Notes: generated by a model not told the origin, from the sequence alone. A stretch of DNA of 64,000 bases from Chloroflexota bacterium (GCA_029555965.1 JAKQHY010000129.1:1375-65374), one strand, 5' to 3'. Shown: positions 6,598-38,921, numbered from the stretch's first letter. Program-made: numbers and translations.

Positions 6598-7566
6598 TCA
6601 TTGCGTATAAATAAAGTGATTCGTATACAGCGATTCCAACGTCACTGAAGAAGTCAACCAACCTTGAGAACGCAGGGCTTCCTGTGTGCTATGCCAGACA
6701 TTGTCTGCCATCATCCCGGGCAAGGTATCCCCGACATCTATGTACGGGATGGTGGCCGCCCAGGAAGCCTGCTGCAAGGCGGTATCCAATGTGGCATCAT
6801 GCGCCAGGGTCAGTTGAACCGCTTCTTCAGGATGCTCAACGGCATAGCGATAGCCTCGTAACGTTGCCCGCACCATCGCTTCTACCAATGCCGGTTGTTC
6901 GGCAATCAAAGCCGCGCGCGTCACCAGTACGTTCGGATACGCCAGGGCGCCGTAGTCGCTCATGTAGATCAGATTGACGTCCTGACCGGTTTGCCGGACC
7001 GCGACCGCTTCGCGGGTAGCCCAGGCGTAGGCCAGCGCGTCCACCTCGCCGGACAGCAAGGCGTCAATCCCCCCAGCGGTTGGCGTCAAAGTCACTTGTT
7101 GCCCACTCAACGCAGTGCGCGTCAACACCACACTCAGCAGGATGTCCGCCTCGGTATGCAAGTCCGCCGACTGCACCCCAATCTGCGTGCGCGGCAAATA
7201 GATAGGGCGAGTCAACCGGGCCGCAGCCAGGGACATGATCGCCTGGGGATTGCGCCGCATAATGGCAGCGACCGCCATCAAGGGTTGGCGCTGACTGCGC
7301 GCCTGCACCAGCCGGATACCCGAACTTACGGCAAAATCCGTCGTTCCTTCAGCAACGCCGGCCAAAGGGGCGTCCTCCCGCACCAGCAACGAAACATCCA
7401 GTCCCTCCGCTGCATAGTATCCCTGCGTCTGCGCCGCATAAAACCCACTCCATAGCACCGAATGAGCCGCATCCAACTGCACCACAACTTTTTGACGCGG
7501 CGGCGGGGGCGTGGTGCATGACAGCAAGCTCACCACCAACAACAGCAACACTGTATTCCTAAACAT
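6598..7566 (-). CDS. NMT1/THI5 (SsuA-like) family substrate-binding lipoprotein
   Basis: Start re-assigned to ATG 7566 (MFRNTVLLLLVVSLLSC, lipobox LLSC). Motifs GFYAAQTQGYYAAEGLDV and EALVEAMVRATLRGYRYAVEHPEEA are typical of the family. Confidence 0.8.
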   Translation of the reverse strand: MFRNTVLLLLVVSLLSCTTPPPPRQKVVVQLDAAHSVLWSGFYAAQTQGYYAAEGLDVSLLVREDAPLAGVAEGTTDFAVSSGIRLVQARSQRQPLMAVAAIMRRNPQAIMSLAAARLTRPIYLPRTQIGVQSADLHTEADILLSVVLTRTALSGQQVTLTPTAGGIDALLSGEVDALAYAWATREAVAVRQTGQDVNLIYMSDYGALAYPNVLVTRAALIAEQPALVEAMVRATLRGYRYAVEHPEEAVQLTLAHDATLDTALQQASWAATIPYIDVGDTLPGMMADNVWHSTQEALRSQGWLTSSVTLESLYTNHFIYTQ

Positions 7567-10465
7567 CGCGCGCCTCTTCGCGCAGCGTCCCTGCGCCGGA
7601 GCCGACCGTATCCACGGCAGTCCACTGAACAAAGGCGCGTGAGGCGCTGAGCACGGACCGCATTTCTTGCACCGCCACCTGCATCAACTCTTCCCAGTTC
7701 AACGTGCGGCGCATTTCGTCCGTGATTTCCCGCGTCAATTGCTCACGCACCGCGCGGCGCTGAGTCTCCTGGTAAAGCCGCGCGCGCTCCAATGTTTGTC
7801 CCAACTGATCGGACAGGGTTTCCAAGAGAGCGGTCTCTTCATTGGACCAAAAGGCGCCAGCCTCTGCTTTTTCAAAACGCAGCACGCCGATCACTTCGTT
7901 GCCAGAACGAATGGGAATCGCCAGCACGCTGCCGGTCTCGGTGGCGCGTAGGGCATACTGACCCGTGCGCTGGGCCTGACGCATCTCGCTATCCCAGGCG
8001 TCGGATACTGGGGTCAACGCGGCGTCGCCCCCGGTTTCCTGCGGTGCGCAGCGATACCCCAGTCCCACACGCGCGCGCGTCAACTCGGCCCAGGCCTCGC
8101 GCGCCCGCGCACCGTAGGCGCGCCGTTCTGCCGCCAACGCCTCCTGCGCTTCCGCGAACAAGCGCGCATTGTCAATTGCCATCGCAACCAAGTCGGCCAC
8201 GGTCTGCAACACAGTGACGGTATCCGCATCAAAGACATCCACCTGGGCGCTTTGCACACTCAACGCCCCCAACACCTGGCCGCGAGAAATCAACGGCAGA
8301 GCCGCCTCCGATTGGGTGTCCGGTAATTCGGAGGCTGCCAGCCAAACAAAGTCGGATTCGGTATGGGAAGCAACCCGCGCCGCCGCGTTGACGATACACC
8401 AGCCGATCATGCCCTCCCCCAATCGGATACGGTAGTTGCGCGCCAACATTGCCCGCCCGCCAGCGCCAGTGCCTGCCTGGAGGACCGCCCACTCTCCAAC
8501 CGCATCCACCAAGAAAAGGCCGACATAATACAGGTCAAAGCGCTCCCGAATCAAATCTGTCACCTGGCGCAGGAGTTGTTCAGAGTCCAGTATCGAGGCC
8601 ACCGCCCGGCCCACCTCCGCCGACGCCGCCAAGTAGCCGGAATGGCGCTCCAGATCGTGGGTGCGGGCGGCCACGCGCTGTTCCAACGCAGCCATGGTTT
8701 CGCGCATTTGCGCCGTCATCTGGTTGAAGGTGTGCGCGAGTTCTCCCAGCTCATCCTCTGCCTCCACTGACGCCACGCCATACAAGTCGCCATGCACGAT
8801 GGCGCGCGCGGCATCGGTCAAGGTCACTACCGGTTTCAAGCTCTGGCGGATGGTAAAGAAAGTCAATACGGATACTATCACGCTGGCCGAGACGACAATG
8901 AGCAACGTCAGGCCCCCTAACCGCCGTAACGGCGAGTGCAGGGTAGTCGTAGTCTGTCGGGTCACAACCCCCCAACCGTTAGGCAGCAGCGTCAAATGAC
9001 TCACCCATGCCACGGATTGTTCGTCAGTGAATTCAAAGACGCCGGCAACATGGTTGCGCAATGCGACAATGGGGGCGGTGCCGCTAAGATCGCGCAATGC
9101 AGCGGTATACGTCGGGTCAGAGTGAACAACCACCAGATTCTGATCGTCTACCACGTAGGCCTGCGCCACCCGCGACAGATCAGGCAGGCGCAACGATTCC
9201 GCCAGAACGGAAAGATCCATTGCGAACATAGCCACGCCAATGACCTGTCCGGCGGGTTCCCGGATGGGTACGGCCACCGCCAGAGCCGGCTGCCCGCTCA
9301 CGCGGTAAAATACCTGCGAGGTGGCCGGCGCCCCCTCGCGCGCCGCAATGAACCACTGCCGATCGCCAAACATTTGAGCCGCTTGCCCATCACTGCGCGC
9401 GATGGTATATCCCTGGATGTCCAGTGTACAAATCAGATCCATGGCCGGATAAATCTCTTGTAAAGATTCCAGCAGAGGACGCTGTTTTTGCGCGTCCATC
9501 GCCACGATTTGAGGCTGTGTCGCCAACTGTTGCAGGAACTTCACATGATCGTCCAGCCACAGGGTTATGTTGGCCGACAGAGTGCGATTATTGGCAGCCA
9601 ATTCGGCTGCCGCGCTTTGAAGTATCGCGGCGCGAGCCTGCAAGTTGACAAAAACCAATCCCGCACACAACATCGGCACCGCCGATGCCAGGATCAGCGT
9701 TGTCAGGCGGATTTGCAGCGGACCGCGCTGTAAGCGGCGCTCCGAGATCATTTGTTGAAGGGCCACATAGGCATACAAGAAAGCAAACAAAGCGTTGCTC
9801 AAGGCGATAGAAAGCATCGGGGCAATAGGGGCCAGCAATAAGAACCATAACGCAGAGATCGTCAACTGCCCTCCCAACAGAAATTGCGCCAAACGGCGGC
9901 GCGGCGGAGCAAGGGTTTTCTCAACAAACACCAAGTACACCTGTATCACCAGGGTCAAAAAGACAATCCCATAACCATATACGGGGCGGAAGTAGGGGTA
10001 CAATACGCCACGCAAGTAAGCTGCGCTATCCACGTACCCGCCTTGATAGATTTGTGGGTCCAGTCCGGTATACCACAAACCCAGATTCCCAACCCAATCC
10101 AGCAATGTCAGAACCATCGGTAGACCGACCAAGGCGTAGAGCAGTCGCCAGAGCCAACGCCATCGGCCCCGTAACCAATCCGGCCGCAATAACACCACGG
10201 TCAACAATGCCATGCCGACTTTGATACTTTCCGTGGTCAGTGACAGTAACAGGGTCGCTACGCCAGCCTGACTCACTCCGGTGGCTTGCACCAGCAGCCC
10301 ATATCCTAGACTGTTCAACGCAAACAGGAGCAACAAACCGCTCAGATGCCGATTGTCCGTGTGCCACGGGTTGAACAACAGCACGTAAAGCGCCATGATC
10401 AGTTCCAGCAAGGCTAAAAACCACCCAATGCCTTGCAATATATCATTCGCCAGCCCCAGACTCAC
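7559..10465 (-). CDS. Sensor with 7-TM (HisKA_7TM-like) domain plus dCache_1, HAMP, GAF, split-GAF module (member 4)
   Basis: About 9 hydrophobic segments; N-terminal LALLELIMALYVLLFNPWHTDNRHLS; dCache DRQWF; HAMP; GAF; tail. GTG overlaps the TGA of the upstream gene. Confidence 0.88.
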   Translation of the reverse strand: MSLGLANDILQGIGWFLALLELIMALYVLLFNPWHTDNRHLSGLLLLFALNSLGYGLLVQATGVSQAGVATLLLSLTTESIKVGMALLTVVLLRPDWLRGRWRWLWRLLYALVGLPMVLTLLDWVGNLGLWYTGLDPQIYQGGYVDSAAYLRGVLYPYFRPVYGYGIVFLTLVIQVYLVFVEKTLAPPRRRLAQFLLGGQLTISALWFLLLAPIAPMLSIALSNALFAFLYAYVALQQMISERRLQRGPLQIRLTTLILASAVPMLCAGLVFVNLQARAAILQSAAAELAANNRTLSANITLWLDDHVKFLQQLATQPQIVAMDAQKQRPLLESLQEIYPAMDLICTLDIQGYTIARSDGQAAQMFGDRQWFIAAREGAPATSQVFYRVSGQPALAVAVPIREPAGQVIGVAMFAMDLSVLAESLRLPDLSRVAQAYVVDDQNLVVVHSDPTYTAALRDLSGTAPIVALRNHVAGVFEFTDEQSVAWVSHLTLLPNGWGVVTRQTTTTLHSPLRRLGGLTLLIVVSASVIVSVLTFFTIRQSLKPVVTLTDAARAIVHGDLYGVASVEAEDELGELAHTFNQMTAQMRETMAALEQRVAARTHDLERHSGYLAASAEVGRAVASILDSEQLLRQVTDLIRERFDLYYVGLFLVDAVGEWAVLQAGTGAGGRAMLARNYRIRLGEGMIGWCIVNAAARVASHTESDFVWLAASELPDTQSEAALPLISRGQVLGALSVQSAQVDVFDADTVTVLQTVADLVAMAIDNARLFAEAQEALAAERRAYGARAREAWAELTRARVGLGYRCAPQETGGDAALTPVSDAWDSEMRQAQRTGQYALRATETGSVLAIPIRSGNEVIGVLRFEKAEAGAFWSNEETALLETLSDQLGQTLERARLYQETQRRAVREQLTREITDEMRRTLNWEELMQVAVQEMRSVLSASRAFVQWTAVDTVGSGAGTLREEARDV

Positions 10466-13284
10466 CAGGTCACCTCCGCCTCGGTCTCTCCAGCTTCCGA
10501 CGCGCCGCCCAAGCGCACCTCGACACTGGCAAAATTCATCGTGTCAAAGATTTCCCGCACAGTGGTGCGCAGGACGGTATCAATATCCAGGGACTCCCGC
10601 ATCCGGGCGGCCAGGTTTGCCACTAGCCGGTCGCGCATGGCCCGCTGCTGTGTTTCCAAATACAATTGCGCGCGCTCCAGTGTTTGCCCTAACTGATCGG
10701 TGAGTGTCCCCAACAGAGTCATCTCTTCATCGGTCCAGGCTACCTCTGCCCCGGTGCGTTCAAAACGCAACACGCCCACTACCTGCCCACTCGTACGCAA
10801 GGGCATGGTCAGGGATGCCGAGGCATCAGACAGTGTCGCCAGGGGGATGTTTGTCTGATAAACCTGCCGCATTTGTGCGTCCCAACCTCCCTGAGCGGCT
10901 ATGAGGGACGGCGCTTCGCCGCCCGCATCCCGCACATAGGCATAGTTCCATAGCTTGTTCGTCCGCATCAACGTCATCCACATTTCCCGTGTGTGCTGAC
11001 CATAAGCGCGCCGCTCGGCCTCCAGGGCTTCCTGAGCCTCGGCGAACAGGCGGGCATTGTCTATGGAGGCCGCGACCAAGTCGGTCATTGTTTGCAACAC
11101 GCTGATGGTGTCTTCGTCAAAAGCATTCGAGACAGTGCTCTGCACACTCAACGCGCCCAAGACCTGACCACGCGAACGTAGCGGCAACGCCGCCTCAGAA
11201 CGGGTGTTGGGCAACTCAGGATTGGTCAAGCGCACCGCATCCGCTTCCGCTTTAGAGGCGATGCGCGCCTGGTTGTGCGCAATACTCCAACCGACCATCC
11301 CCTCGCCAATCCGAATACGGTGCCCGCGTGCTAACATCGCCTGGCCGGCCTCGCCGGTACCGGCGCGCAACACGGCAGAATCTCCACTGATCAAAAATAG
11401 ACCCACGTAATACAGATCAAAACGTTCCAGAATCAAACCGACCACATCCCGGATGAGTTGCTCAATATTCAAGATTGAGGAAACCGCACGACCCACTTCA
11501 GAGGAAGCTTCCAGGTAACGCGAGCGCCGCTGCAAATCGTGCGTGCGCTCGGCCACCCGCTGTTCCAGTCCGCGGAAGGCTCCACGCAGTTGTTCGGTCA
11601 TGCTATTGAAAGCCAGTCCCAAGCGCCCAATTTCATCCTGGCGCGCCACACGCACCACCCGCGTCAAATTGCCCGCGGCCACCTCCGAGGCGGTGTTGGT
11701 CAATTCCAATAGGGGCTGCACAATGCTGCGGGTAATAAGCAGGGTCAACCCCACACTCAAGAGCAAAGCAAAGAAAGCAATCCCACCGTTCAACAGGATG
11801 GTGATATACAATTCACGAAAAGCCTCGCTTTGCGCTTGCTGCACGCTTAACACCGCCGCGATGCGTGGCAACCAATGATAAACTTCTACGAGAGGCACCC
11901 CCATCTCATTCACATAGAACCCTGAACCGCTTCTTTCCCAGTCAATGGCCTCCGCTATCCCTGGCGTCCGGGCCACCAGGCCAAACGTGCCTCCGCGTGA
12001 GTCACTGAGAATTAAATAATCAGACCCAACCAGGTAAATTACGCCCGTTTCACCAAGGCCGGCGCGATCAGTCATAATCTCATTCAAAACATCAAACCCG
12101 ACTCTGCCCGCCAAGACGCCAACAGAGGGAACCGGCGCCCCAGAAGGAGTGTGCAAAACGTCGGTAGAAAAAATAGGCATAGAAACCCAAATAAAGGGCT
12201 GCGACCCTAACGCCCAATTGACGCTAAATCCCTGACGACCATCCGTAAAGAAACGTTCGCTCGCATAATTGCGCCTTCGTTGTTGTGTGTTGTCGGAGGC
12301 CACCACTTCCCCCTGCACATTCAAAATTAACAATTCCTGGAACACCGAGGATTGCCGACGTGCGGTTGCCAGGTACGTTTCCAGGCTACTTGTCAACACA
12401 ACGGGAATGGTAACCGGTTCAGTCGCGGCCACATCAACGTAACGCGGCAAAATATACTGCGAAAACTCGTTGACATTATTATTAGTCAGGACAAGGTTTA
12501 GCTCAGTCTCCAGCCTGTCTACCCAAACATCAATTTGCGATTCCCGCAGGTTGGCCGTCAATTCCAGCCGGTCCAACACATGCCGCTGAACACTGCGCCA
12601 TCCCAACCACACAGAGACCGCGCTAACGGACAACACAGTCAACAGCACACTCACGAGAGACACCAGCAACAACCGGGCCCGGATTGAGAGGCCGCCAACC
12701 CAATGCCCGCCCGCCCAGAGCAGGGCGACCAGATAGACGACTCCGCCGCCGAACAGCGCGGCGCTGAGTACCGGCGGCTGGGTAGACATAGCAAGGCGAG
12801 GAAGAGGCGCCCATACTTCCAGCAGGCCGATGATGCCCGCCGCTCCCAGGCCGCTACCCAGCCAGACTTCCCAACGCCCGGAGCGGCAGAGCGCGCCGCC
12901 GAGCAACAACAGAGCCACAGTAAACCAGGTATAACCGGTAGTCCCCTGGAAAAAAGCCGTGGCCCCGCCATACACCAACACGTAGGCTGCCAGCAATCCA
13001 TAAGCGACACGCACAGGCGCCGCGAAAGTAAAGCGCCGCACCCACCCCAAGAGGAGCAGCGCCGCCAATGCAAGCGGCAACAGCGCCAGGTTTTGCCAGA
13101 GCCGTTGTTGAAAATAATGGCCAAGGCTACCGCCGGCTACCAGCAAGGCGACACCCATATTGCCCCACACCAACCACGTCCAGAGCCGCTGTTGGACGTG
13201 CGCCGTCAGAAACACCGGCCCTCCATGCGGGACAGCGGGTTGGGGGTCTCCAACTGCTATGGACTTTGGTTCTAATTCCCTCAT
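10462..13284 (-). CDS. Sensor with multi-TM membrane domain plus dCache_1, HAMP, GAF, split-GAF module (member 5)
   Basis: About 6 N-terminal TM segments, then TM-dCache-TM-HAMP (DEIGRLGLAFNSM), GAF and tail. ATG 13284 has a GAGG SD; alternative TTG at 13290. Confidence 0.88.
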   Translation of the reverse strand: MRELEPKSIAVGDPQPAVPHGGPVFLTAHVQQRLWTWLVWGNMGVALLVAGGSLGHYFQQRLWQNLALLPLALAALLLLGWVRRFTFAAPVRVAYGLLAAYVLVYGGATAFFQGTTGYTWFTVALLLLGGALCRSGRWEVWLGSGLGAAGIIGLLEVWAPLPRLAMSTQPPVLSAALFGGGVVYLVALLWAGGHWVGGLSIRARLLLVSLVSVLLTVLSVSAVSVWLGWRSVQRHVLDRLELTANLRESQIDVWVDRLETELNLVLTNNNVNEFSQYILPRYVDVAATEPVTIPVVLTSSLETYLATARRQSSVFQELLILNVQGEVVASDNTQQRRRNYASERFFTDGRQGFSVNWALGSQPFIWVSMPIFSTDVLHTPSGAPVPSVGVLAGRVGFDVLNEIMTDRAGLGETGVIYLVGSDYLILSDSRGGTFGLVARTPGIAEAIDWERSGSGFYVNEMGVPLVEVYHWLPRIAAVLSVQQAQSEAFRELYITILLNGGIAFFALLLSVGLTLLITRSIVQPLLELTNTASEVAAGNLTRVVRVARQDEIGRLGLAFNSMTEQLRGAFRGLEQRVAERTHDLQRRSRYLEASSEVGRAVSSILNIEQLIRDVVGLILERFDLYYVGLFLISGDSAVLRAGTGEAGQAMLARGHRIRIGEGMVGWSIAHNQARIASKAEADAVRLTNPELPNTRSEAALPLRSRGQVLGALSVQSTVSNAFDEDTISVLQTMTDLVAASIDNARLFAEAQEALEAERRAYGQHTREMWMTLMRTNKLWNYAYVRDAGGEAPSLIAAQGGWDAQMRQVYQTNIPLATLSDASASLTMPLRTSGQVVGVLRFERTGAEVAWTDEEMTLLGTLTDQLGQTLERAQLYLETQQRAMRDRLVANLAARMRESLDIDTVLRTTVREIFDTMNFASVEVRLGGASEAGETEAEVTW

Positions 13285-13293
13285 ACGCAACCT

Positions 13294-13944
13294 CTACTGC
13301 TCCGAGGTTCCCTCCGACAAGACCTCACCCAAACGCACCTCCACCCGCGAGAAATTGAGGGCATCACCAATTTCACGAATGGTCGTTTGCAATACCGTAT
13401 CAATATCCATCGAAGCGCGCATCCGAGCGCTGACTTCACTAATGATCTGATCGCGCGCGGCGCTACGCCGGGTGTCCTCAAACAGACGGGCGCGATCTAA
13501 CGCGGCGGCCACCTGTTCGGCCAACGCATCCAGCAAAGCACGCTCCTCGGCCAACAACGGGTGTGCCGGATCGTTACGCACGCCCAACATCCCCACCACC
13601 TGCCCCTGCTGCACTTTCATCGGCACAAGGTAAGTCGCAGCATCAGGCTGGGGATGTGCGTGTAACACCTGCACGCGCTGTTCCTCGAAGATATACCCCA
13701 TCTTTCCCTGCCGGCGCGCACGCAACATGGCCCAACCTTCCCGCGCTTGTTCTTGCTGAAGTAACTCCATCACCCGCAAGCGGTCTTCCATCTCCTCGGC
13801 CACTTCATCGGAGTGCTCGGTGGTCATTTCGGCCATTAATTCCAGATCGGCCTTTTCGCGCTCCAGGCGGGCCACCTGCTCGCGCAACATAGCCAATTCG
13901 GCCTGCAAGGACATTTCCCCGACGGGAGGTTTTACATCAGCCAT
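13294..13944 (-). CDS. Small cytoplasmic protein: coiled coil with EKADLELMAEMTTEHSD motif fused to the split-GAF module only (member 6)
   Basis: 216 aa with no TM and no conserved first GAF. Retains W..L..R..GY, VPMKV-QVVGML and the tail RSAARDQIISEVSARMRASMDIDTVL. Confidence 0.85.
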   Translation of the reverse strand: MADVKPPVGEMSLQAELAMLREQVARLEREKADLELMAEMTTEHSDEVAEEMEDRLRVMELLQQEQAREGWAMLRARRQGKMGYIFEEQRVQVLHAHPQPDAATYLVPMKVQQGQVVGMLGVRNDPAHPLLAEERALLDALAEQVAAALDRARLFEDTRRSAARDQIISEVSARMRASMDIDTVLQTTIREIGDALNFSRVEVRLGEVLSEGTSEQ

Positions 13945-13954
13945 TGTTTATGCC

Positions 13955-14305
13955 TTAAATAAATTTCAGCCGCAGCTGCGGCATCAAACGTTGTAGGTTC
14001 TTCAAGGATTTGCCCTGCCAGGGGACCAGGGACGAACCCAGTACCACCAGTTCGCTTTTCCCTAGCTCGCGCACATCAATCACAAACTTGAAGAGGACAT
14101 TAATTCCAGAACTGTTCAGGAAACGTAAATTCTGGACATCCAATGTAATGGTAGCGGGCGCTAAATCCTTGACCTGATCCAATAAGGCCACAATGGGAGC
14201 ATACTCTTCCGTCCCCCGCAAGCGCATCAGCCCATCACATGTAATTGTGGCGCTGGCTTCGTCATACACCACACTATAATCTTGATCCTTGATCTCCATA
14301 ACCAT
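13955..14305 (-). CDS. STAS-like anti-sigma-factor antagonist (slr1659-like regulator)
   Basis: LDVQNLRFLNSSGINVLFKF matches the SpoIIAA/RsbV phospho-Ser motif (D/N-S-S/T-G). C-terminal WQGKSLKNLQRLMP is typical of cyanobacterial slr1659-like proteins (recalled, not searched). Confidence 0.8.
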   Translation of the reverse strand: MVMEIKDQDYSVVYDEASATITCDGLMRLRGTEEYAPIVALLDQVKDLAPATITLDVQNLRFLNSSGINVLFKFVIDVRELGKSELVVLGSSLVPWQGKSLKNLQRLMPQLRLKFI

Positions 14306-14326: not shown

Positions 14327-14899
14327 TTAGAATTGCAGCCGCACCATGGTGGTGACAACAGTAGCTTCGCCCGATTTGCACTCAAAAGTTTTAAATCGCC
14401 AGGACAGTGTCGCGCCATAGTCGCCAATCATTGTCAATAACCCTAATTGCGAACCGCCGCCATCCCCCAGAGCATTCTTCTCAATCTGTTCCAGATACAA
14501 TTCCGCCGGGTCTTCCTCTAACAACCGCTGCACCCGCTGTTGAAACTCGTCTACTTGCTGAGGATCCATCGCGTTGCTGGTGTAGAACCGGAATTCATCC
14601 GAGAAGAGATATAACCCCAGGCTAACCGGATAATCAGCCGGTTCATAACTGAACTTCATGACGTTTTCTAACAATTCATTGGCGATGTAGTTAACGGCAC
14701 CTTTGAATTCCAGGCGCTGTTCCTCCGTCGGCCCCCCCCCTGTCGGCAAAAAAGTGGCCCAATATTCCGACAGGAAATCCGCCGAAAGGCCATTGTTCCG
14801 CCACCGTTGTTGCAACGGCATGGAGGTCGGTGAAAAGTGAATCACCAAGTACTCATATTCATCACAAGGTTCTAGAAATTCTCCAAAAGTTTTCTCCAT
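14327..14899 (-). CDS. slr1658-like regulator; atypical RsbW/SpoIIAB-type GHKL ATP-binding protein
   Basis: QRWRNNGLSADFL motif; N-box-like YIANELLENVMKF; Gly-rich GGGSQLGLLTM. Start is ATG 14899 (GGAG SD) or ATG 14944 overlapping the upstream stop. Confidence 0.75.
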   Translation of the reverse strand: MEKTFGEFLEPCDEYEYLVIHFSPTSMPLQQRWRNNGLSADFLSEYWATFLPTGGGPTEEQRLEFKGAVNYIANELLENVMKFSYEPADYPVSLGLYLFSDEFRFYTSNAMDPQQVDEFQQRVQRLLEEDPAELYLEQIEKNALGDGGGSQLGLLTMIGDYGATLSWRFKTFECKSGEATVVTTMVRLQF

Positions 14900-14940
14900 C
14901 TTCTCATCTCCCAATTGCCAGAATTGACTCAACTCAAACT

Positions 14941-16761
14941 TCATTTTTGCCTCATCACCAGCAAAGTCAAATCATCATAGACTACATGCTGCCCGATGAA
15001 AGCTTGTACGTCCGCGACAACGGCATCTTTGATCGCTTCTGCCGGCTGTGCCCAATTCTGGCTGAGGGTCCGGCACAACCGGTCCAGCCCATAGAATTCC
15101 CCGGCCAGATTTTCGGCTTCTACTACCCCATCTGAATACAACACAATACCATCGCCGGCCGCCAATTCCACTTGCGTCTCGGTCACAAAGTCGGCGATAT
15201 TGTCAACCACGCCGACCGGAAATCCTAAGTCAAGGGTATCCATCAACTCCACAGAACCATTCTTGCGCACGACAATGAGCTGCTCATGCTGCCCACTCAG
15301 ACAAACACGCCCTTTGCGGTAATCCAGTAGCGCCAGGGACAGACTGCGTTCCACATTCATCCGACGGATGTTATCATGCAGCGTGCGGTTCAACACAGCC
15401 ATGAAACGTTTGATATCGGTCTCGCCGCCGACCAACAAAGTGCGCACGGCGGTTTGCAACATCAGCATCACCACGCCGCTTTCCAATCCATGACCGGTCA
15501 CATCGCCTATCCCAATTTTGAGCTGCCCGTCATATTGCAATACATCGTAATAATCGCCGCCCACCTCTTCCGCAGGAGCCATGTAACCAGCGATATCCAA
15601 TTCCTCGATGCGCTTTAATTCTTCCGGTTTCGGCAGTAACATTTGTTGCAACCGGCGAGACACATCCAACTCGGCCACCATGCGCACATTCTCGGCCTTG
15701 AGTTGTTCATTGAGGTAAGCAACATTCAGGGCGTTCGCAATATTGCCGGCCAAGCCTTCCAGCAAATCCAGTTCCAGGTCAGAAAAAGGGGTGATGTCGG
15801 TCCGGTGAATATCCATTGCGCCAAAGACCTTGGCGCCCACCATCAACGGAATCGCCAATTCGACGCGCGTGAAGGCCAAGCGCGAGTAGGTGAACTCAAT
15901 CGGGCGGCCACGCTCGTCCGGCTTTTTCTCCCAGGAGGTTGCGATGCACTTCTGTTTTTGCCGGATGGCTACTGCGACCACTTTGGGGGTCAACAGTCCC
16001 ACTGAGGCTTGCGCGGACTTCACCGTGGCCGCGCCATCTCCCACCGCGTCCACCAATTCCACCGACTCAGTAGCCCAGTTCACCGTGAATAAACCTACAT
16101 GCGAATATCCGAATGTTTCGTGGATCCGTTGAACAGCTTCCTGGATGATAGTTTCCGACGTCTCCGCCGCCGTTGCCATCCGGCCAATCTTGATCCCGGT
16201 ATGGCCGCGCTCAATCTGCTGATGCAGTTGCTGTTCCAAATTGCGAAAAGTGCGCACCAACAGCCAACACAACACAATCAGAACTTGAAGGAAGAGCGCC
16301 GTCCAAACGGCCTGCGCCGCGCCAGTCGGAGTCAGCCCTATCCGCACCAAGAAAGCGATAGCCGTGACTTCCCCCCACACCCAGCCGGCCAGAGGATCGC
16401 ATAGGGTAGCCGCCGCCAAAATGGGCAACACATAAAACAAATAAACCGGCCCAGCAAAAAACACTTCGGACGGCAGGGGCACAGCGATGAATAGCAAAAA
16501 CGCCACAATCAACAAGTTGGCAGCCAACGTCAATCGCTCGCGCTGGAACAGATAATGGAGACCGATGCTCGCCCCCACCCATAGGCTCCCCAATACGATC
16601 AACGGCACTATGTCTGAGATGGCGCCGATCACAATAGAGAACAGCCCCAAAGGGAGTGGCACTTTCAACCACACGAACAAGGCCGCCGTCGCCTGGTCCC
16701 TGTCAGTTTCCCAGAGTTGCATGATCTGCCACAGTTTATGGCGTAACACGGATATGCTCAC
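14941..16761 (-). CDS. Membrane-anchored GAF + SpoIIE/RsbU PP2C Ser/Thr phosphatase
   Basis: All PPM metal-binding motifs are intact: GGDYYD, GDVTGHG, LYSDG, DDLT. About 6 TMs and one GAF N-terminal. GTG start with GGAGGTG SD. Confidence 0.93.
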   Translation of the reverse strand: MSISVLRHKLWQIMQLWETDRDQATAALFVWLKVPLPLGLFSIVIGAISDIVPLIVLGSLWVGASIGLHYLFQRERLTLAANLLIVAFLLFIAVPLPSEVFFAGPVYLFYVLPILAAATLCDPLAGWVWGEVTAIAFLVRIGLTPTGAAQAVWTALFLQVLIVLCWLLVRTFRNLEQQLHQQIERGHTGIKIGRMATAAETSETIIQEAVQRIHETFGYSHVGLFTVNWATESVELVDAVGDGAATVKSAQASVGLLTPKVVAVAIRQKQKCIATSWEKKPDERGRPIEFTYSRLAFTRVELAIPLMVGAKVFGAMDIHRTDITPFSDLELDLLEGLAGNIANALNVAYLNEQLKAENVRMVAELDVSRRLQQMLLPKPEELKRIEELDIAGYMAPAEEVGGDYYDVLQYDGQLKIGIGDVTGHGLESGVVMLMLQTAVRTLLVGGETDIKRFMAVLNRTLHDNIRRMNVERSLSLALLDYRKGRVCLSGQHEQLIVVRKNGSVELMDTLDLGFPVGVVDNIADFVTETQVELAAGDGIVLYSDGVVEAENLAGEFYGLDRLCRTLSQNWAQPAEAIKDAVVADVQAFIGQHVVYDDLTLLVMRQK

Positions 16762-19058
16762 ATCTCACCTCCATCCACAGTCGCATCTGGCGACGGCGTT
16801 GCTTGCTCATCCACCAAGTAGACAAACACTTCACGGCCCAGGGTACGGCCAATCTCCAACACTGCCGTGCGCAGCACCGATTCGACATCCACCGCGCTGC
16901 GAATGTGCTCCGTAATCTCGCGCAACAGTTGCTCCCGCGCCGCCGAGCGCTGCGAGTCCCGATAGAAACGGGCGCTCTCCAACGCAACCTCCAACCGACC
17001 CCGCACTGTTTCTAGCAGCGCCAGTTCTTCCGACGTCCAGAGTGTTCCATCCGGCTTCCGCGCATCCACCACCCCGATGATTTGATCACGAACGCGCAGC
17101 GGCAGCGCCACGGCTTCTGGGGTGACCTCTGCCAGGGTGGTTTCGCCGCGCGTCAACGCTACGGTCATTTCTGGCGACCAGAAGTCCTCAGCCTGACTCA
17201 AAATCCGGCTATGATAACGGTATCCCCCCCCCGCCAGCGCGCGCGACAGCTCAGCCCACGCCCGCCGACTATATTCCCCTTGCGCCCGCAGCACAGCGTC
17301 GTAACGCTCCTGGGATTCTTTGTACAGTTGATTGTTGTGCCACATTAAGGCTAACTGATCGGCGAGAATTTGCAAGATGGGCACATTGTCTTCCGTGAAA
17401 GCATCGGTGAGCACCGCATGAATATCTAACACCCCAATCACGCGCCCCTGAAACCTCATCGGTAAGGCTACCTCCGCATGCGTATCCGGTAAATCCACCC
17501 GCGCTGGCAGCCAGGTATCTTCGTCGCCAGGGACCGCTATGTGCGGCGCAGCCGTGAGCACGGCCTGCCCCACAACACCGGCCCGAGCCACCCGCAGTCG
17601 GTAGCCGTGACTGAGCAAACGTTGCCCGCCCAGACTGGAAGCCGCGCGCAAAACAATCCATTCGCGGGTCTCATCCAACAAGAAGATGCCGGTATGATAA
17701 AAGCCCAACTGCGCGCTAAGGAGATTGACGCCATCGGACAAAAGTTTCTGCGGGTCAAGGATAGTCATAATAATACTGGAAATATTCGCCGCTTTCTGCA
17801 TCATCCCTAAGCGCCCGGCCAGATGTTGAATCTGTCCATCCAACGCCTCATGCGCCCGCTGCCACGCCCCACGGGTTTGCTCCAAGGTCTGAATCAGCCG
17901 CCCCAACTCATCGGAACGCGAGCGGGTATGCTTGTCAACCTCAATCGGCCTCGCGAATTCGCCATGCTCCCACAGCGTCACTTGCGGCGTCAACATGCGG
18001 AGCGGCCGCACAAGGCGCTCCCCACTCCAATAGCCTAGGGCCACCACCCCACAGCTTCCCAACAATAGCCAGCCCAACATCCCCCATTCGAACCGCAACA
18101 TCGGGGACATCACGGCGCGGTAGGGTCGGATGGAAAAAACCAGCCACTGATAGGTGGTTGCCGCCGGGGGAGTGAACCGCTGAAAAGCCAGGAAATCTGC
18201 CCCAGCCCGCAGAACGTCAGTTTGCGTGGTGGCTTCTGGTTGGAAAATGGAATCCAGCATCAGTGGATAATCCTGAAGCAGCGTTAAACCGGTGCGCAAA
18301 TCGCGTCCCCAACACTTCGTCGCATCCGTCGAATGGTAAAGATAATAACCGTCCGCATCCGTCAACACCAACGTTTCCCCGGCCTCGGCTTGCGCCCCCA
18401 ACGTCGCCAGAAAGTGATCGGCATAGACACTGACAACCACGATCCCAGATACACGGCCATTGAACCAGACCGGGGTGGCATAGCGGATCACCGGCTTGAA
18501 TGGTTGCGCAATCTCACCACGAACCCGGTGCAATTCCAGAGGGGAGACCCACACAGCCGCCTCCGGCAATCCGATGGTCTGCACAAAATCATCCTGGGCG
18601 GCCCAATTTTGAAATTGTTCAGGCGGCGCGATAGAAACCTGCGTCCCATCCGAATCTACCCGCGCCACCTCCAAACCCTGAACATCCACAAAACTTATCT
18701 GATGATAAATGCCTTTGGCCTGAGAGAAGGCCAGCAAGTCTCGCGCCAGTACTTGTCGCGCAACTTCATGGGCGGCTTCATCCGCCGTCGCACTCAAGGT
18801 CAGCAGGTCTTGAATGGCGCGCAATTGACCGAGGAACAACACATCTCCACGCACGCCGGAAAGAAATTCGTGGGTGCTCAACATCAGTGACGCAGCACGG
18901 GCCTGCTGGAGACGTTCCGTGTTCGCCAGCATCATGTTGCGCGTCATATAGACACTGTAGGCGCTGCCGCCCACCAAGGCCGGCACCGAGACCAGCAACA
19001 GCACCAGCAAGAGCCGATTACGAAGACTTTGCGCAAAGAAATGATACATCCGGTTCAC
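16758..19058 (-). CDS. Sensor with dCache_1, HAMP, GAF, split-GAF module (member 7)
   Basis: WVSPLELHRVRGEIAQPFKPVIRYATPV dCache signature; HAMP SDELGRL; GAF FYHTGIFLLD; tail. Confidence 0.88.
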   Translation of the reverse strand: MNRMYHFFAQSLRNRLLLVLLLVSVPALVGGSAYSVYMTRNMMLANTERLQQARAASLMLSTHEFLSGVRGDVLFLGQLRAIQDLLTLSATADEAAHEVARQVLARDLLAFSQAKGIYHQISFVDVQGLEVARVDSDGTQVSIAPPEQFQNWAAQDDFVQTIGLPEAAVWVSPLELHRVRGEIAQPFKPVIRYATPVWFNGRVSGIVVVSVYADHFLATLGAQAEAGETLVLTDADGYYLYHSTDATKCWGRDLRTGLTLLQDYPLMLDSIFQPEATTQTDVLRAGADFLAFQRFTPPAATTYQWLVFSIRPYRAVMSPMLRFEWGMLGWLLLGSCGVVALGYWSGERLVRPLRMLTPQVTLWEHGEFARPIEVDKHTRSRSDELGRLIQTLEQTRGAWQRAHEALDGQIQHLAGRLGMMQKAANISSIIMTILDPQKLLSDGVNLLSAQLGFYHTGIFLLDETREWIVLRAASSLGGQRLLSHGYRLRVARAGVVGQAVLTAAPHIAVPGDEDTWLPARVDLPDTHAEVALPMRFQGRVIGVLDIHAVLTDAFTEDNVPILQILADQLALMWHNNQLYKESQERYDAVLRAQGEYSRRAWAELSRALAGGGYRYHSRILSQAEDFWSPEMTVALTRGETTLAEVTPEAVALPLRVRDQIIGVVDARKPDGTLWTSEELALLETVRGRLEVALESARFYRDSQRSAAREQLLREITEHIRSAVDVESVLRTAVLEIGRTLGREVFVYLVDEQATPSPDATVDGGEM

Positions 19059-20572
19059 GCTTCACTCTCACTATTCGCCAATGGTTGCGCCTGGCCTAAT
19101 AATTCATCGGCTGCGCCGAGCCGAATGACCACATCCTCCAGGCCGAACGCCTCTGCCAATTCCCGCACAGCCGCCTGCAACACCGACTCGATCTCCAACG
19201 ATTCGCGGATGCGCGCCGAGACGGTCCCGACCAGGCGCTCTTGCAAAGCCAAACGTCGGCTCTCCTCGTACAGGCGCGCGCTTTCTAAGGCCTGGCTCAA
19301 CCGATTGGTCAAGGTTTCCACCAACGCGATCTGCTGCGCATCCCACCCCCCCGTTCTTTCAGCACGGCGGAAGCGTACCACCCCCAAGACCTGCTCATCC
19401 CGCGACTTCACCGGAACCAACAACGTGGCGGCATCCTCTTGAACAATCTGTCCTTCCTGTTTGGCTTGCAACATCCCCGGCGACCACGCAGCGGAGGCCG
19501 GCCCCAGTCCCGTCGCCATACTCACGTACCCATGACCTTGTGATTGCAGCAACTCCTCCCAGTCCTGGCGTGTCACTTCCCCATAAACGCGCTGCAACGC
19601 ATCATCGGCTGGCTGCATCTCCGTAAGCCAAAAAGCGCCCCCCAAACCCACCGCCATCAGGTCGGCCACACCTCGCAGAATTTCGATGTCTGCCTGTGTG
19701 AATATCACCCCTTGCCCGCCTTGAACATCCAGCACTCCTACCAACTGCCCCCCGACGCTCAAAGGTAACGCGATTTCCGTGCGCGTGTCTGGCAAATCAA
19801 CTGGGGATAGATAGGAGGTATCCCTCGCCACAGCCAAGTTGATGTATGGTTCACGGGTCGCCGCCACCCTTCCCACAATGCTATCGTAGCCTACCGGTTC
19901 CCGTTGAGGGCGCGCCAACATCGGCAAGTCACTTGCGTTGCTCGCGGCGCGCAGCGCCATAGTCTCCCCGCCCTCCTCCAAGAGGAAAACACCTACATGG
20001 TAGCAGTTGAAACGATCACTGATCAGGTTTGTTATCGCCATCAACCGCGCATCCAAATCCTGGATCGAAGCTATCGCACGCCCTACCTCCAACACGGTTT
20101 GCAGCCACAGCGTTTCACGCGCCTTGCCCTGCGCGCACTCGGCAACCTGGCGCTCCAGAGTCGCGGTCGTCTCGGTCAGATGAGACACCAGGGCGTTGAT
20201 CCCTTCTTGTAAGCGGCCAATCTCGTCCTTGGCGCACGGCCGGGCAAGCCGCGCGACGGAATCCCCCCCCGGCGACTGCCGGACCACCTCATCCAGCGCG
20301 CGCAAACGCGCCAGCACCAACGCATTGAACAGGTAGAGCAGTACCAGGGATGTCAATAGGATGACCAACAACCCTGCCGCCCCGCCATACATCACAAGGC
20401 TGCGCCCTTCGGGCTGCGCCAACCATGCCGCCAGGCGCTGCCCTTGCAACAGTCCCGGCTGCCGCCCAAGCCAGGCGCCATACGCCACACCGATCCCGCT
20501 CAGAATGACACATTCGGTTAGGACAATGGCAATCCCTATCTTCACAATCAGGCTGTTTTGGCGTTTTTTCAT
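19055..20572 (-). CDS. TM-short loop-TM-HAMP-GAF-split-GAF module protein (member 8)
   Basis: Two TMs separated by about 30 aa; HAMP DEIGRLQEGINAL; GAF; tail. Confidence 0.87.
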   Translation of the reverse strand: MKKRQNSLIVKIGIAIVLTECVILSGIGVAYGAWLGRQPGLLQGQRLAAWLAQPEGRSLVMYGGAAGLLVILLTSLVLLYLFNALVLARLRALDEVVRQSPGGDSVARLARPCAKDEIGRLQEGINALVSHLTETTATLERQVAECAQGKARETLWLQTVLEVGRAIASIQDLDARLMAITNLISDRFNCYHVGVFLLEEGGETMALRAASNASDLPMLARPQREPVGYDSIVGRVAATREPYINLAVARDTSYLSPVDLPDTRTEIALPLSVGGQLVGVLDVQGGQGVIFTQADIEILRGVADLMAVGLGGAFWLTEMQPADDALQRVYGEVTRQDWEELLQSQGHGYVSMATGLGPASAAWSPGMLQAKQEGQIVQEDAATLLVPVKSRDEQVLGVVRFRRAERTGGWDAQQIALVETLTNRLSQALESARLYEESRRLALQERLVGTVSARIRESLEIESVLQAAVRELAEAFGLEDVVIRLGAADELLGQAQPLANSESEA

Positions 20573-37691: not shown

Positions 37692-38921
37692 CTATTCGCG
37701 GTTGGGCCTAGGCCCAATATCCTCGGCAATGGTCTGGGGCGCATCAATGTGAACCGCTACCTCCGCCACGCCCGGCAGTCGCCCCAACTCGCGCACGGCC
37801 GCTTGCAACATCGTTTCCATATTCACGGCCCCCGAAAAGACCCGCGACACATCACTGAGTTGCTGCTGGTAAGTCGCGCGCTGCCGGCTGTCCGTCAACA
37901 ACTGCGCATTATCCAGCGCCAGACCGGCCTGCACGCCGATTTCCTCCACCAGCGCCACCTCCTCATCGGACCAGGGAAGCTGCACCGGGTCTCGTTCCAG
38001 CGTAATCGAACCGATCACATGGTCTCGCAAGAAAATGGGGATGACCAACTGATGCGATGTAACGACGTGCCGCCCATCCATCCCCTCCGGCACGCCCTCC
38101 TCCCACACGCGCGCGACGTTCAGACCATCATACGTATACGTGCGCGTCCCCACACGACTGCGCCACATCTCCCCCATCTGCTCCCGGTAGAGCATTTCCA
38201 GGCGTTCAACCGTGCGCCGGTTCTCCTCGAACAAGCGCGCGCCCTGAATTGCCAGGGCTAACTGGTCGGCCATCGTCTGCAAAATTTCAACATCTTCCTG
38301 GCTAAAGGCGTGAGGTTCGGTGGACTGCACATCCAGCACGCCAATAACCTGCTCGCGGATCTTCAAAGGCAGGGCCATCTCCGAGCGCGTTTCAGGCAAT
38401 TCCAATGTACTGGTCCAGGTGGGGTCTTCGCCGACATTCAATGCAATCCGCGCCTCACCACGCGCAGCCACGTAGCCCACCATCCCTTGCTCGGCCACCC
38501 GCAGTTTGTGGCCCCGCGCCAACATGCGCCGCCCCCCCTCGGAGGAAGCCGCCTGCATCACAGCGAAATCACCGGCGTCGTCCAACAAAAAAATTCCGGC
38601 GTGATAAAAGTCAAATTGCTGCGAAATCAACGCCACCAACGTCTGCATCAATTCGTCCAAGTCACGAATGGCCGCGGCATCCCGCGCCACCAACGCCGCG
38701 GCCCGGAAACGCGCCATACGCTGGGCGAACATCTCGGCCTGCCGCGCTAATTGCCGCTGCCCCGCCATCTGCGTGTTCGTCAACCCATCTATGCGCCGTT
38801 CCAACATGCGATGGTTGATTAACAAATTCTGGATGCGATGCCGCTGCCGCAGGATTATCCCCACAGTCACCACGATCAACACTACGAATACACCGATCGC
38901 CGCTAACCACATCCACGTCAT
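37692..38921 (-). CDS. Single-TM anchor + coiled coil + GAF + split-GAF module (member 16)
   Basis: N-terminal TM at residues 3-24; GAF; divergent tail (RATYQQQL). Confidence 0.88.
   Translation of the reverse strand: MTWMWLAAIGVFVVLIVVTVGIILRQRHRIQNLLINHRMLERRIDGLTNTQMAGQRQLARQAEMFAQRMARFRAAALVARDAAAIRDLDELMQTLVALISQQFDFYHAGIFLLDDAGDFAVMQAASSEGGRRMLARGHKLRVAEQGMVGYVAARGEARIALNVGEDPTWTSTLELPETRSEMALPLKIREQVIGVLDVQSTEPHAFSQEDVEILQTMADQLALAIQGARLFEENRRTVERLEMLYREQMGEMWRSRVGTRTYTYDGLNVARVWEEGVPEGMDGRHVVTSHQLVIPIFLRDHVIGSITLERDPVQLPWSDEEVALVEEIGVQAGLALDNAQLLTDSRQRATYQQQLSDVSRVFSGAVNMETMLQAAVRELGRLPGVAEVAVHIDAPQTIAEDIGPRPNRE

Follow-up and report, generated by a model that had tools for sequence, protein, structure and literature searches.

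The window, i. e. the whole stretch of DNA analysed here, comprises 64,000 nucleotides of contig C33 from a 4.9-Mb uncultured Anaerolineae-type Chloroflexota MAG. On its minus strand, at 13294..13944, ORF calling and translation gave a gene for a soluble protein of 216 amino acids (the target protein), which opens with MADVKPPVGEMSLQAELAMLREQVARLEREKADLELMAEMTTEHSDEVAEEM... and contains LREQVARLEREKADLELMAEMTTEHSDEVAEEM exactly. Its N-terminal part, the leader (residues 11-62, 13759..13914, delimited by profile search), is a heptad coiled coil carrying the conserved motif TTEHSD (residues 41-46, 13807..13824, from motif tallies), in which His44 is encoded by the codon 13813-13815. This is followed by a core with W71 and G83-Y84 and a partial GAF domain (residues 71-155, 13480..13734; Pfam GAF and AF2), which comprises four strands and the helix alpha-5. 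The remainder is a tail (residues 156-208, 13321..13479; module HMM and AF2), the common C-terminus of the array proteins described below, which looks like the beginning of another GAF domain, its N-terminal helix and first strand.

No membrane segment was found in the target protein, the highest Kyte-Doolittle mean over 19 residues being 0.73, and neither Pfam nor NCBIfam scans revealed a sensor domain. A transmembrane or sensor domain was thus ruled out by the Pfam scan and hydropathy. Residues 1-60 gave nothing specific in Pfam, and the whole protein nothing relevant in NCBIfam. The preliminary description of this locus had noted a His-containing TTEHSD coiled coil fused to a bare GAF module directly after a STAS gene, with no membrane or sensor domain. 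The ORF, the Pfam matches, the 10-nt gap to the STAS gene, the hydropathy and the empty scans agree with it on all these points.

The orthologs P0002-P0007 share 58-85% identity with the target protein. The small orthologs (n=7, 210-222 aa, within the same range of identity) come from Anaerolineae-type assemblies, and EHSD is invariant among them. In comparison with the two nearest orthologs the dN/dS of the gene was 0.06-0.07 overall (dS 1.2-1.9). The leader, with a dN/dS of 0.028, showed the strongest constraint within the gene. The gene is under strong purifying selection, and a pseudogene or fragment could be ruled out from these dN/dS values.

The target gene starts 10 nt past the stop of a gene on the same strand (13955..14305, minus) that encodes a 116-aa STAS protein. 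This protein is slr1659-like (NF047705 slr1659_superfam, 148.5 bits, cut-off 100), its match to STAS itself being weak. Its candidate phospho-acceptor, Ser65 (codon 14111-14113), lies within the loop F-L-N-S-S-G-I, and in 70 homologs of the slr1659 family the positions of this loop, F62-L-N64-S65-S66-G-I68, are invariant or nearly so. The preceding gene (14327..14944, minus), the only copy of its kind in the genome, encodes an slr1658-like GHKL-type protein, presumably the switch kinase (NF052618, 216.7 bits, cut-off 200; NF047703, 206.5 bits). It is in turn preceded by a gene (14941..16761, minus) for a membrane-GAF-SpoIIE/PP2C phosphatase, presumably the sensor phosphatase of the switch (Pfam SpoIIE 1.6e-37, GAF 3e-10). 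The order of the operon is hence PP2C phosphatase, GHKL kinase-like protein, STAS protein, target protein. On the other side lies the gene for a dCache-HAMP-GAF receptor of 942 aa (10462..13290, minus; Pfam), the first possible start codon of which is found 3-9 nt past the target stop. This receptor ends in the same module as the target protein (module HMM, 95.8 bits).

Such receptors fill the minus strand of the window almost without a break, and most of them have HAMP and GAF domains and lack a catalytic output. The input side consists of dCache, dCache_3, MASE11, a periplasmic-binding domain or PAS; the run also includes a receiver gene and a single histidine kinase with HAMP and GAF. A module HMM built from residues 56-208 of the target protein and its relatives identified 73 ORFs in the 4.9-Mb genome, with the strongest matches in two arrays, one on C33 and one on contig C162. 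About 25 neighbouring sensor proteins without an output domain share the C-terminal end of the target protein; in the genome there are about 45. The second large array, also on the minus strand (C162:33236-75269, outside the window), includes multi-GAF proteins of 1329-2381 aa. Contig C162 holds no slr1658 homolog. Two members of the array in the window, of 409 and 505 aa (37692-38921 and 19055-20572, both minus), show only GAF in Pfam and neither a sensor nor a HAMP domain. Thus the target protein is not the sole member without a Pfam-recognisable sensor, but it is the sole one with a leader. The receptor operon further contains a gene for an NMT1/THI5-like solute-binding protein (6598-7632, minus), which is a conserved part of the array since an equivalent gene occurs in the arrays of L001, L004 and L006.

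The Pfam models GAF, GAF_2 and GAF_3 (PF01590, PF13185, PF13492) matched residues 59-151 of the target protein with 37, 32.3 and 31.7 bits, above the gathering cut-off. These matches cover only profile positions of about 42-136 (46-133 for GAF itself). AF2, run on the module with a 62-sequence alignment, gave a model of moderate confidence (pLDDT 78) with a helix, four strands, one 46-residue helix in which alpha-5 runs straight into the tail, and a further helix. A circularly permuted GAF domain, in which the tail folds back on the core in cis, was considered; in the AF2 monomer obtained with the deeper alignment alpha-5 extends into the tail instead, a result compatible with, but no proof of, completion of the domain in trans. 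In a Foldseek search against the PDB, GAF domains and the phytochrome photosensory core ranked first, these matches being weak and partial (E 0.26-1.5, 50-100 aligned residues, rmsd about 2.5 Å). A fold search with the first full-length AF2 model (pLDDT 67) returned nothing. The predicted structure, with four strands and a long helix that leads into the start of another GAF-like element, recalls the tandem-GAF helical spines of phytochromes and of PDE2/PDE6. In the target protein, however, the following domain is cut to a helix-helix-strand tail. In the receptors the module is placed after GAF-A, and the residues after the leader motif of the target protein (EEMEDRL..LLQQ..REGW) align with the GAF-A-to-module linker of the array members P0008 and P0010.

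The consensus of the leader is DLE-LLE-TT-x-H-[SAG]-D. A profile built from the orthologs' leaders (53 residues), run against 1.84 billion representative proteins, retrieved 185 of them at E<=1e-3, the match being nearly always N-terminal and often present in 2-5 tandem copies. One of the leader proteins comes from the cyanobacterium Tumidithrix. Motif copies (n=190) were gathered with a pattern requiring His. Asp at +2 was present in 187 of the 190, and residue +1 was S, A or G in 189. His itself, tallied without this constraint, is found in about 95% of copies and forms the sole invariant column of the alignment A4. Ala or Gly takes the place of the motif's Ser in 58% of copies. The Thr positions (T, A, I, V, N) and the preceding Glu are variable as well. 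Judged from hydrophobic periodicity, T(-3) would occupy heptad position d, [SAG](+1) position a and V/I/L(+4) again d, with His at g and Asp at b. With T(-3) at d and [SAG](+1) at a, the core of the coiled coil should be small and polar right at the motif.

Against the broad profile A4 the target protein scored 66.1 bits (E 1.1e-17), its leader being one of the 50 sequences in A4. A second profile, made solely from the leaders of other proteins, recovered the same motif class in relatives. A narrow profile of the orthologs found only 3 loci when run against genome contigs, and the patterns derived from it were too specific. In Pfam, NCBIfam and the PDB the leader had no match beyond generic coiled coils, those in the PDB being to its first half, and the Pfam and NCBIfam models left the leader uncovered in every protein scanned. 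A full-text literature search with the motif strings (TEHSD, TEHGD and others) found no paper that prints the motif. The 93 longer leader matches carry a variety of signalling domains: PAS (55), HisKA/HATPase (32-36), GGDEF (19), REC (14), class III cyclase (13), GAF (8), SpoIIE (2) and STAS (2).

All orthologs with a leader are encoded after slr1658-like and slr1659-like genes, of which there are often two pairs. One paralog of the target protein is leaderless (L005 9600-10000): in the leader's place the sequence translates as repeated FVIRHS(P/S) units, and there are no slr1658/slr1659 genes next to it. In a genome from a different Chloroflexota class (G245) genes for PP2C, slr1658 and slr1659 proteins are followed by a 78-aa leader-only ORF and a leader-cyclase gene. 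This small ORF (L010 9177-9422, minus) lies between the slr1659-like and the leader-cyclase gene. At other loci the gene after slr1658 and slr1659 encodes two leaders, PAS, HK, REC and cyclase in one protein of 911 aa (L009), or two leader-HK genes lie directly upstream of the pair (L011). At L097 the order is PP2C-hybrid, slr1658, slr1659, a protein with the leader twice and GGDEF, and a leader-PAS-HK-REC protein. The link between leader and switch is independent of the GAF module. Near a single leader protein the slr1658-like genes can be duplicated (L001 8041-9989, L004 96-2043, L008 7999-9958, L011 9384-10930), and in some of these loci the slr1659-like genes are duplicated too, upstream of or beside the leader gene.

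A metagenome scan seeded with slr1658 homologs yielded 80 loci with 549 kb, of which the 59 that extend at least 400 bp beyond the pair were taken as informative. The next gene bears the leader in 50 of these 59 loci, and in 45 of the 50 the leader starts 26-116 bp past the slr1658/slr1659 pair; the remaining 9 loci are truly without a leader gene. The 549 kb contain 54 leader ORFs, each of which sits right after the pair and none elsewhere. In 401 Chloroflexota genomes the leader occurred in 2 and the slr1658 family, rare in this phylum, also in 2, and these were the same two genomes. By chance, such an overlap would arise with a probability of 1 in C(401,2), about 1.2e-5. Leader-bearing genomes have only about two leader genes each, and some leader genes sit far from any switch. 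Chance adjacency of leader and switch genes was thus ruled out by the positions in the metagenomes, the shared two genomes and the low leader count.

The preliminary description had stated that similar leaders occur beside slr1658/slr1659 homologues. With 50 of 59 loci, the same two of 401 genomes and several unrelated architectures, this association is much stronger than stated there, and the leader-profile search and gene-neighbourhood check that it proposed showed a conserved motif linked to slr1658/slr1659 loci. Invariance of EHSD, low dN/dS and constant position after slr1658/slr1659-like genes make the feature more than chance. As far as sequence can tell, the leader is a distinct, portable and uncurated module that marks the gene after operons of the order PP2C, slr1658, slr1659.

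Could the target protein nevertheless be just a truncated, sensor-less paralog of the array proteins, capping or dominant-negative, in which the coiled coil is a generic dimeriser and the position of the gene has no functional meaning? The module is found in 73 ORFs of the genome, the leaderless L005 paralog has no adjoining triad, and in the PDB the first half of the leader matches generic coiled coils, all of which would fit such an origin. Yet the motif is specific, its His and Asp are near-invariant, the leader has a dN/dS of 0.028, and its place after slr1658/slr1659 genes is kept irrespective of the fused domain. We therefore regard this explanation as quite improbable.

The domains of the 50 operon-linked leader proteins indicate what a fourth gene usually encodes. 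Guanylate_cyc (class III cyclase) was found in 27, PAS in 18, HATPase_c in 8, HisKA in 7 and GGDEF in 3. A ParA/MinD-like P-loop ATPase domain, replacing or beside the signalling enzyme domain, was seen in 5 of the 50 fourth genes (L014-L093). At least one His-containing motif is present in all 50 proteins and two or three in 27, tandem leaders being spaced by 25 residues in 22 cases and by 32 residues in 5. The target protein has two traits of leader-bearing fourth genes, the N-terminal x-H-[SAG]-D coiled coil and the place beside the pair. The signalling enzyme domain typical of them (cyclase, HK, GGDEF) is absent from it according to Pfam, and its GAF-like module was found in none of the 50 metagenomic fourth genes. 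Judging by domain matches, the usual catalytic domain is replaced in the target protein by the partial-GAF-plus-tail module of the receptors.

The conserved Thr, His and Ser of the motif had been put forward in the preliminary description as possible phospho-acceptors, which would turn the leader into a phosphotransfer element. For Thr and Ser this finds no support because they are not conserved: Thr is variable, 58% of copies have Ala or Gly instead of Ser, and only His and Asp are near-invariant. The near-invariance of His, together with the GHKL-type protein encoded two genes upstream, could be read in favour of His as the acceptor. However, no HisKA or Hpt match was found in the target protein, and E-H-[SAG]-D differs from the H-box H-E-[LIV]-[RK]-T-P-L, which the leader-bearing kinases have separately. 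Since His lacks an H-box or Hpt context and these kinases possess their own H-box, it is unlikely to be phosphorylated. Moreover, RsbW-type kinases target a STAS serine, and this serine is invariant here. Phosphotransfer through the leader thus seems very improbable.

A different role of the near-invariant His and Asp would be that of a metal-, pH- or redox-sensitive input helix. The slr1658/slr1659 pair is named after Synechocystis PCC 6803 genes, and the two genes upstream of the target gene are clear members of these families, above curated cut-offs. Synechocystis with a disrupted slr1658 recovers less well from iron limitation (Zer et al. 2018, as cited in PMC7555055), which would suit a metal-sensing function. 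The slr1658 literature searched gives this mutant phenotype and no mechanism. No other ligand residues are conserved in the leader, though, and His and Asp, one of each at i and i+2 (presumably positions g and b), cannot chelate together on one helix. A sensitive helix also explains the operon linkage no better than docking of a protein does, so we give this role hardly any credence.

Docking is suggested by comparison with enzyme-controlling partner switches. SiaABCD of Pseudomonas aeruginosa consists of the PP2C phosphatase SiaA, the kinase SiaB, the STAS-like protein SiaC and the diguanylate cyclase SiaD (PMC8457831). [quoted passage not shown] The system described here is similar in gene order and logic, with a phosphatase, a kinase, a small phospho-protein and an effector with an N-terminal coiled coil. 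The repeated conserved motifs in the effector coiled coil have their counterpart in the 1-3 tandem copies of operon-linked leaders. The loop Y-x-N-T-S-x-I of SiaC resembles F-L-N-S-S-G-I of the slr1659-like protein, S-D-x-[VIL]-E of the leader echoes S82-D83-R84-Y85-Q86 of SiaD, and the L097 relative with the leader twice and GGDEF is built like a SiaD-type effector.

There are also differences. The models of SiaA (NF038263) and SiaB (NF038262) gave only 34.6 bits (cut-off 700) and, for the slr1658-like protein, 23.5 bits (cut-off 85), the latter a weak match. The 116-aa protein belongs to the slr1659_superfam and not to SiaC (DUF1987). The leader has a motif of its own, T-x-H-[SAG]-D, and the tandem spacing is mostly 25 and not 32 residues. 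Searches of the PDB by phmmer with the leader, the STAS-like and the kinase-like protein did not return any SiaD, SiaC or SiaB chain. Finally, the target protein has neither GGDEF nor any other catalytic domain. Thus the likeness is architectural only, and by the curated family models the system is not a member of SiaABCD. BgrR of Sinorhizobium meliloti (BgrSTUWV) and HsbD of P. aeruginosa (HptB-HsbR-HsbA) are likewise enzymes on which a STAS protein acts, as described in PMC8457831. Compared by description only, these switches agree with the present one in that the output is a signalling enzyme and not a sigma factor; their effectors are GGDEF proteins, in contrast to the non-catalytic GAF-like module of the target protein.

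We consider it probable that the target protein is the fourth-gene effector of an slr1658/slr1659-type switch, in which the STAS protein docks on the leader and thereby gates a sensor-less member of the array. The leader would be the family-specific docking module of this operon. In a first step, the membrane PP2C phosphatase and the slr1658-like kinase would set the phosphorylation of the STAS protein at Ser65 (or Ser66). We infer that it is the STAS protein that binds the leader, and that it does so when unphosphorylated: its loop F-L-N-S-S-G-I would dock on the parallel dimeric leader at T-x-H-[SAG]-D, where the small core residues would leave room for it. Docking could then stabilise or re-register the coiled coil, which appears continuous with what is the GAF-A-to-module linker in the receptors. 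By this, the terminal module of the sensor-less member would be switched, and through it the role of the shared module in the array, which is most likely homo- or hetero-oligomerisation by contacts between modules. Since the linker to the terminal module is a continuation of the leader helix, docking of the STAS protein would replace the sensor-HAMP-GAF input of the receptors.

The partner of the leader might also be a different one. In canonical partner switches (RsbW/RsbV, SpoIIAB/SpoIIAA) it is the kinase that holds the effector, and RsbW-type GHKL kinases phosphorylate a serine of the STAS protein. Since in classical switches the kinase and not the STAS protein holds the effector, the leader might be bound by the slr1658-like GHKL protein, as RsbW and SpoIIAB hold a sigma factor, and be released when the unphosphorylated STAS protein competes for the kinase. 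Synteny and co-occurrence fit this arrangement and STAS docking equally, and in L001, L004 and L008 there are two kinase/STAS pairs per leader protein. Against it stand the enzyme-controlling switches, where in SiaC-SiaD, BgrV-BgrR and HsbA-HsbD a STAS-type protein binds the effector (PMC8457831), and the invariant N-S-S loop of slr1659, which resembles the docking loop of SiaC. On balance, we think it unlikely that the kinase holds the target protein, and retain docking of the STAS protein.

Whichever of the two proteins binds it, the leader marks the gene after slr1658/slr1659, and the C-terminal end of the target protein is common to the sensors; for this reason the target protein most likely connects the phospho-switch to the sensor array, as predicted from its sequence. 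This part of the preliminary description, a coupling subunit between the receptor assembly and the partner switch, is plausible and partly supported by the tie of the leader to the switch and by the module common to it and the receptors. The further proposal of a functional CheW analogue holds only loosely. Like CheW, the target protein is small and soluble, has a module in common with larger partners and could link many receptors to one set of enzymes. Unlike CheW, it is encoded at the position of an effector and not of a scaffold, no physical receptor lattice is known here, and a CheW-like domain (PF01584) was not matched at E<=0.1. Because its place is that of the controlled effector elsewhere, the target protein is more like a target in the position of SiaD than a scaffold. 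It may thus be better seen as a switch-gated, sensor-less array member than as a CheW-like scaffold.

The only other leader gene of the genome (C92:28345-29406, plus) encodes a soluble leader-HisKA-HATPase kinase of 320-350 aa and lies far from the switch. Orthologs of this kinase were found at L094 5038-6372 (minus) and L095 4444-5433 (plus), and the two related genomes that have such orthologs also have a leader-module gene. As this kinase family carries the same leader (LLESLAEHSD or MEVVTEHSD) and is conserved in three related Anaerolineae genomes away from switch genes, the kinase may be served by the switch in trans. One can go further and speculate that the leader is an address tag for all clients of the switch, in cis and in trans, with exactly two clients in this Anaerolineae lineage, the target protein and the C92 kinase, between which the STAS protein is partitioned. 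We hold this idea with little confidence. If it were true, a sensor array of about 45 members without output would be coupled to a two-component kinase by competition for one phospho-protein, and the terminal partial-GAF-plus-tail would be a new kind of transmitter module.

By analogy, the mechanism favoured here, docking of the STAS protein on the leader, would be of a known kind, namely a Sia-like partner switch that acts on its effector via an N-terminal coiled coil. Two aspects appear to be new in the sources searched: a portable candidate docking motif specific to the slr1658/slr1659 family, and, in this lineage, the fusion of this motif to the non-catalytic end that the proteins of a large sensor array share. 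Only a few partner switches are known to act on enzymes instead of sigma factors (SiaABCD, BgrSTUWV, HsbA/HsbD), and the literature searched gives no description of how the widespread slr1658/slr1659 family finds its targets. A short searchable motif that predicts the clients of the switch would make the outputs of this family readable from sequence; the candidate clients seen so far include cyclases, histidine kinases, GGDEF enzymes and the non-catalytic target protein. The motif also pinpoints individual residues, His44, Ser45 and Asp46 of the leader and Ser65 of the STAS protein. For this locus, the motif provides the first concrete handle on how about 25 adjacent output-less sensors (about 45 genome-wide) might be wired to a signalling output.
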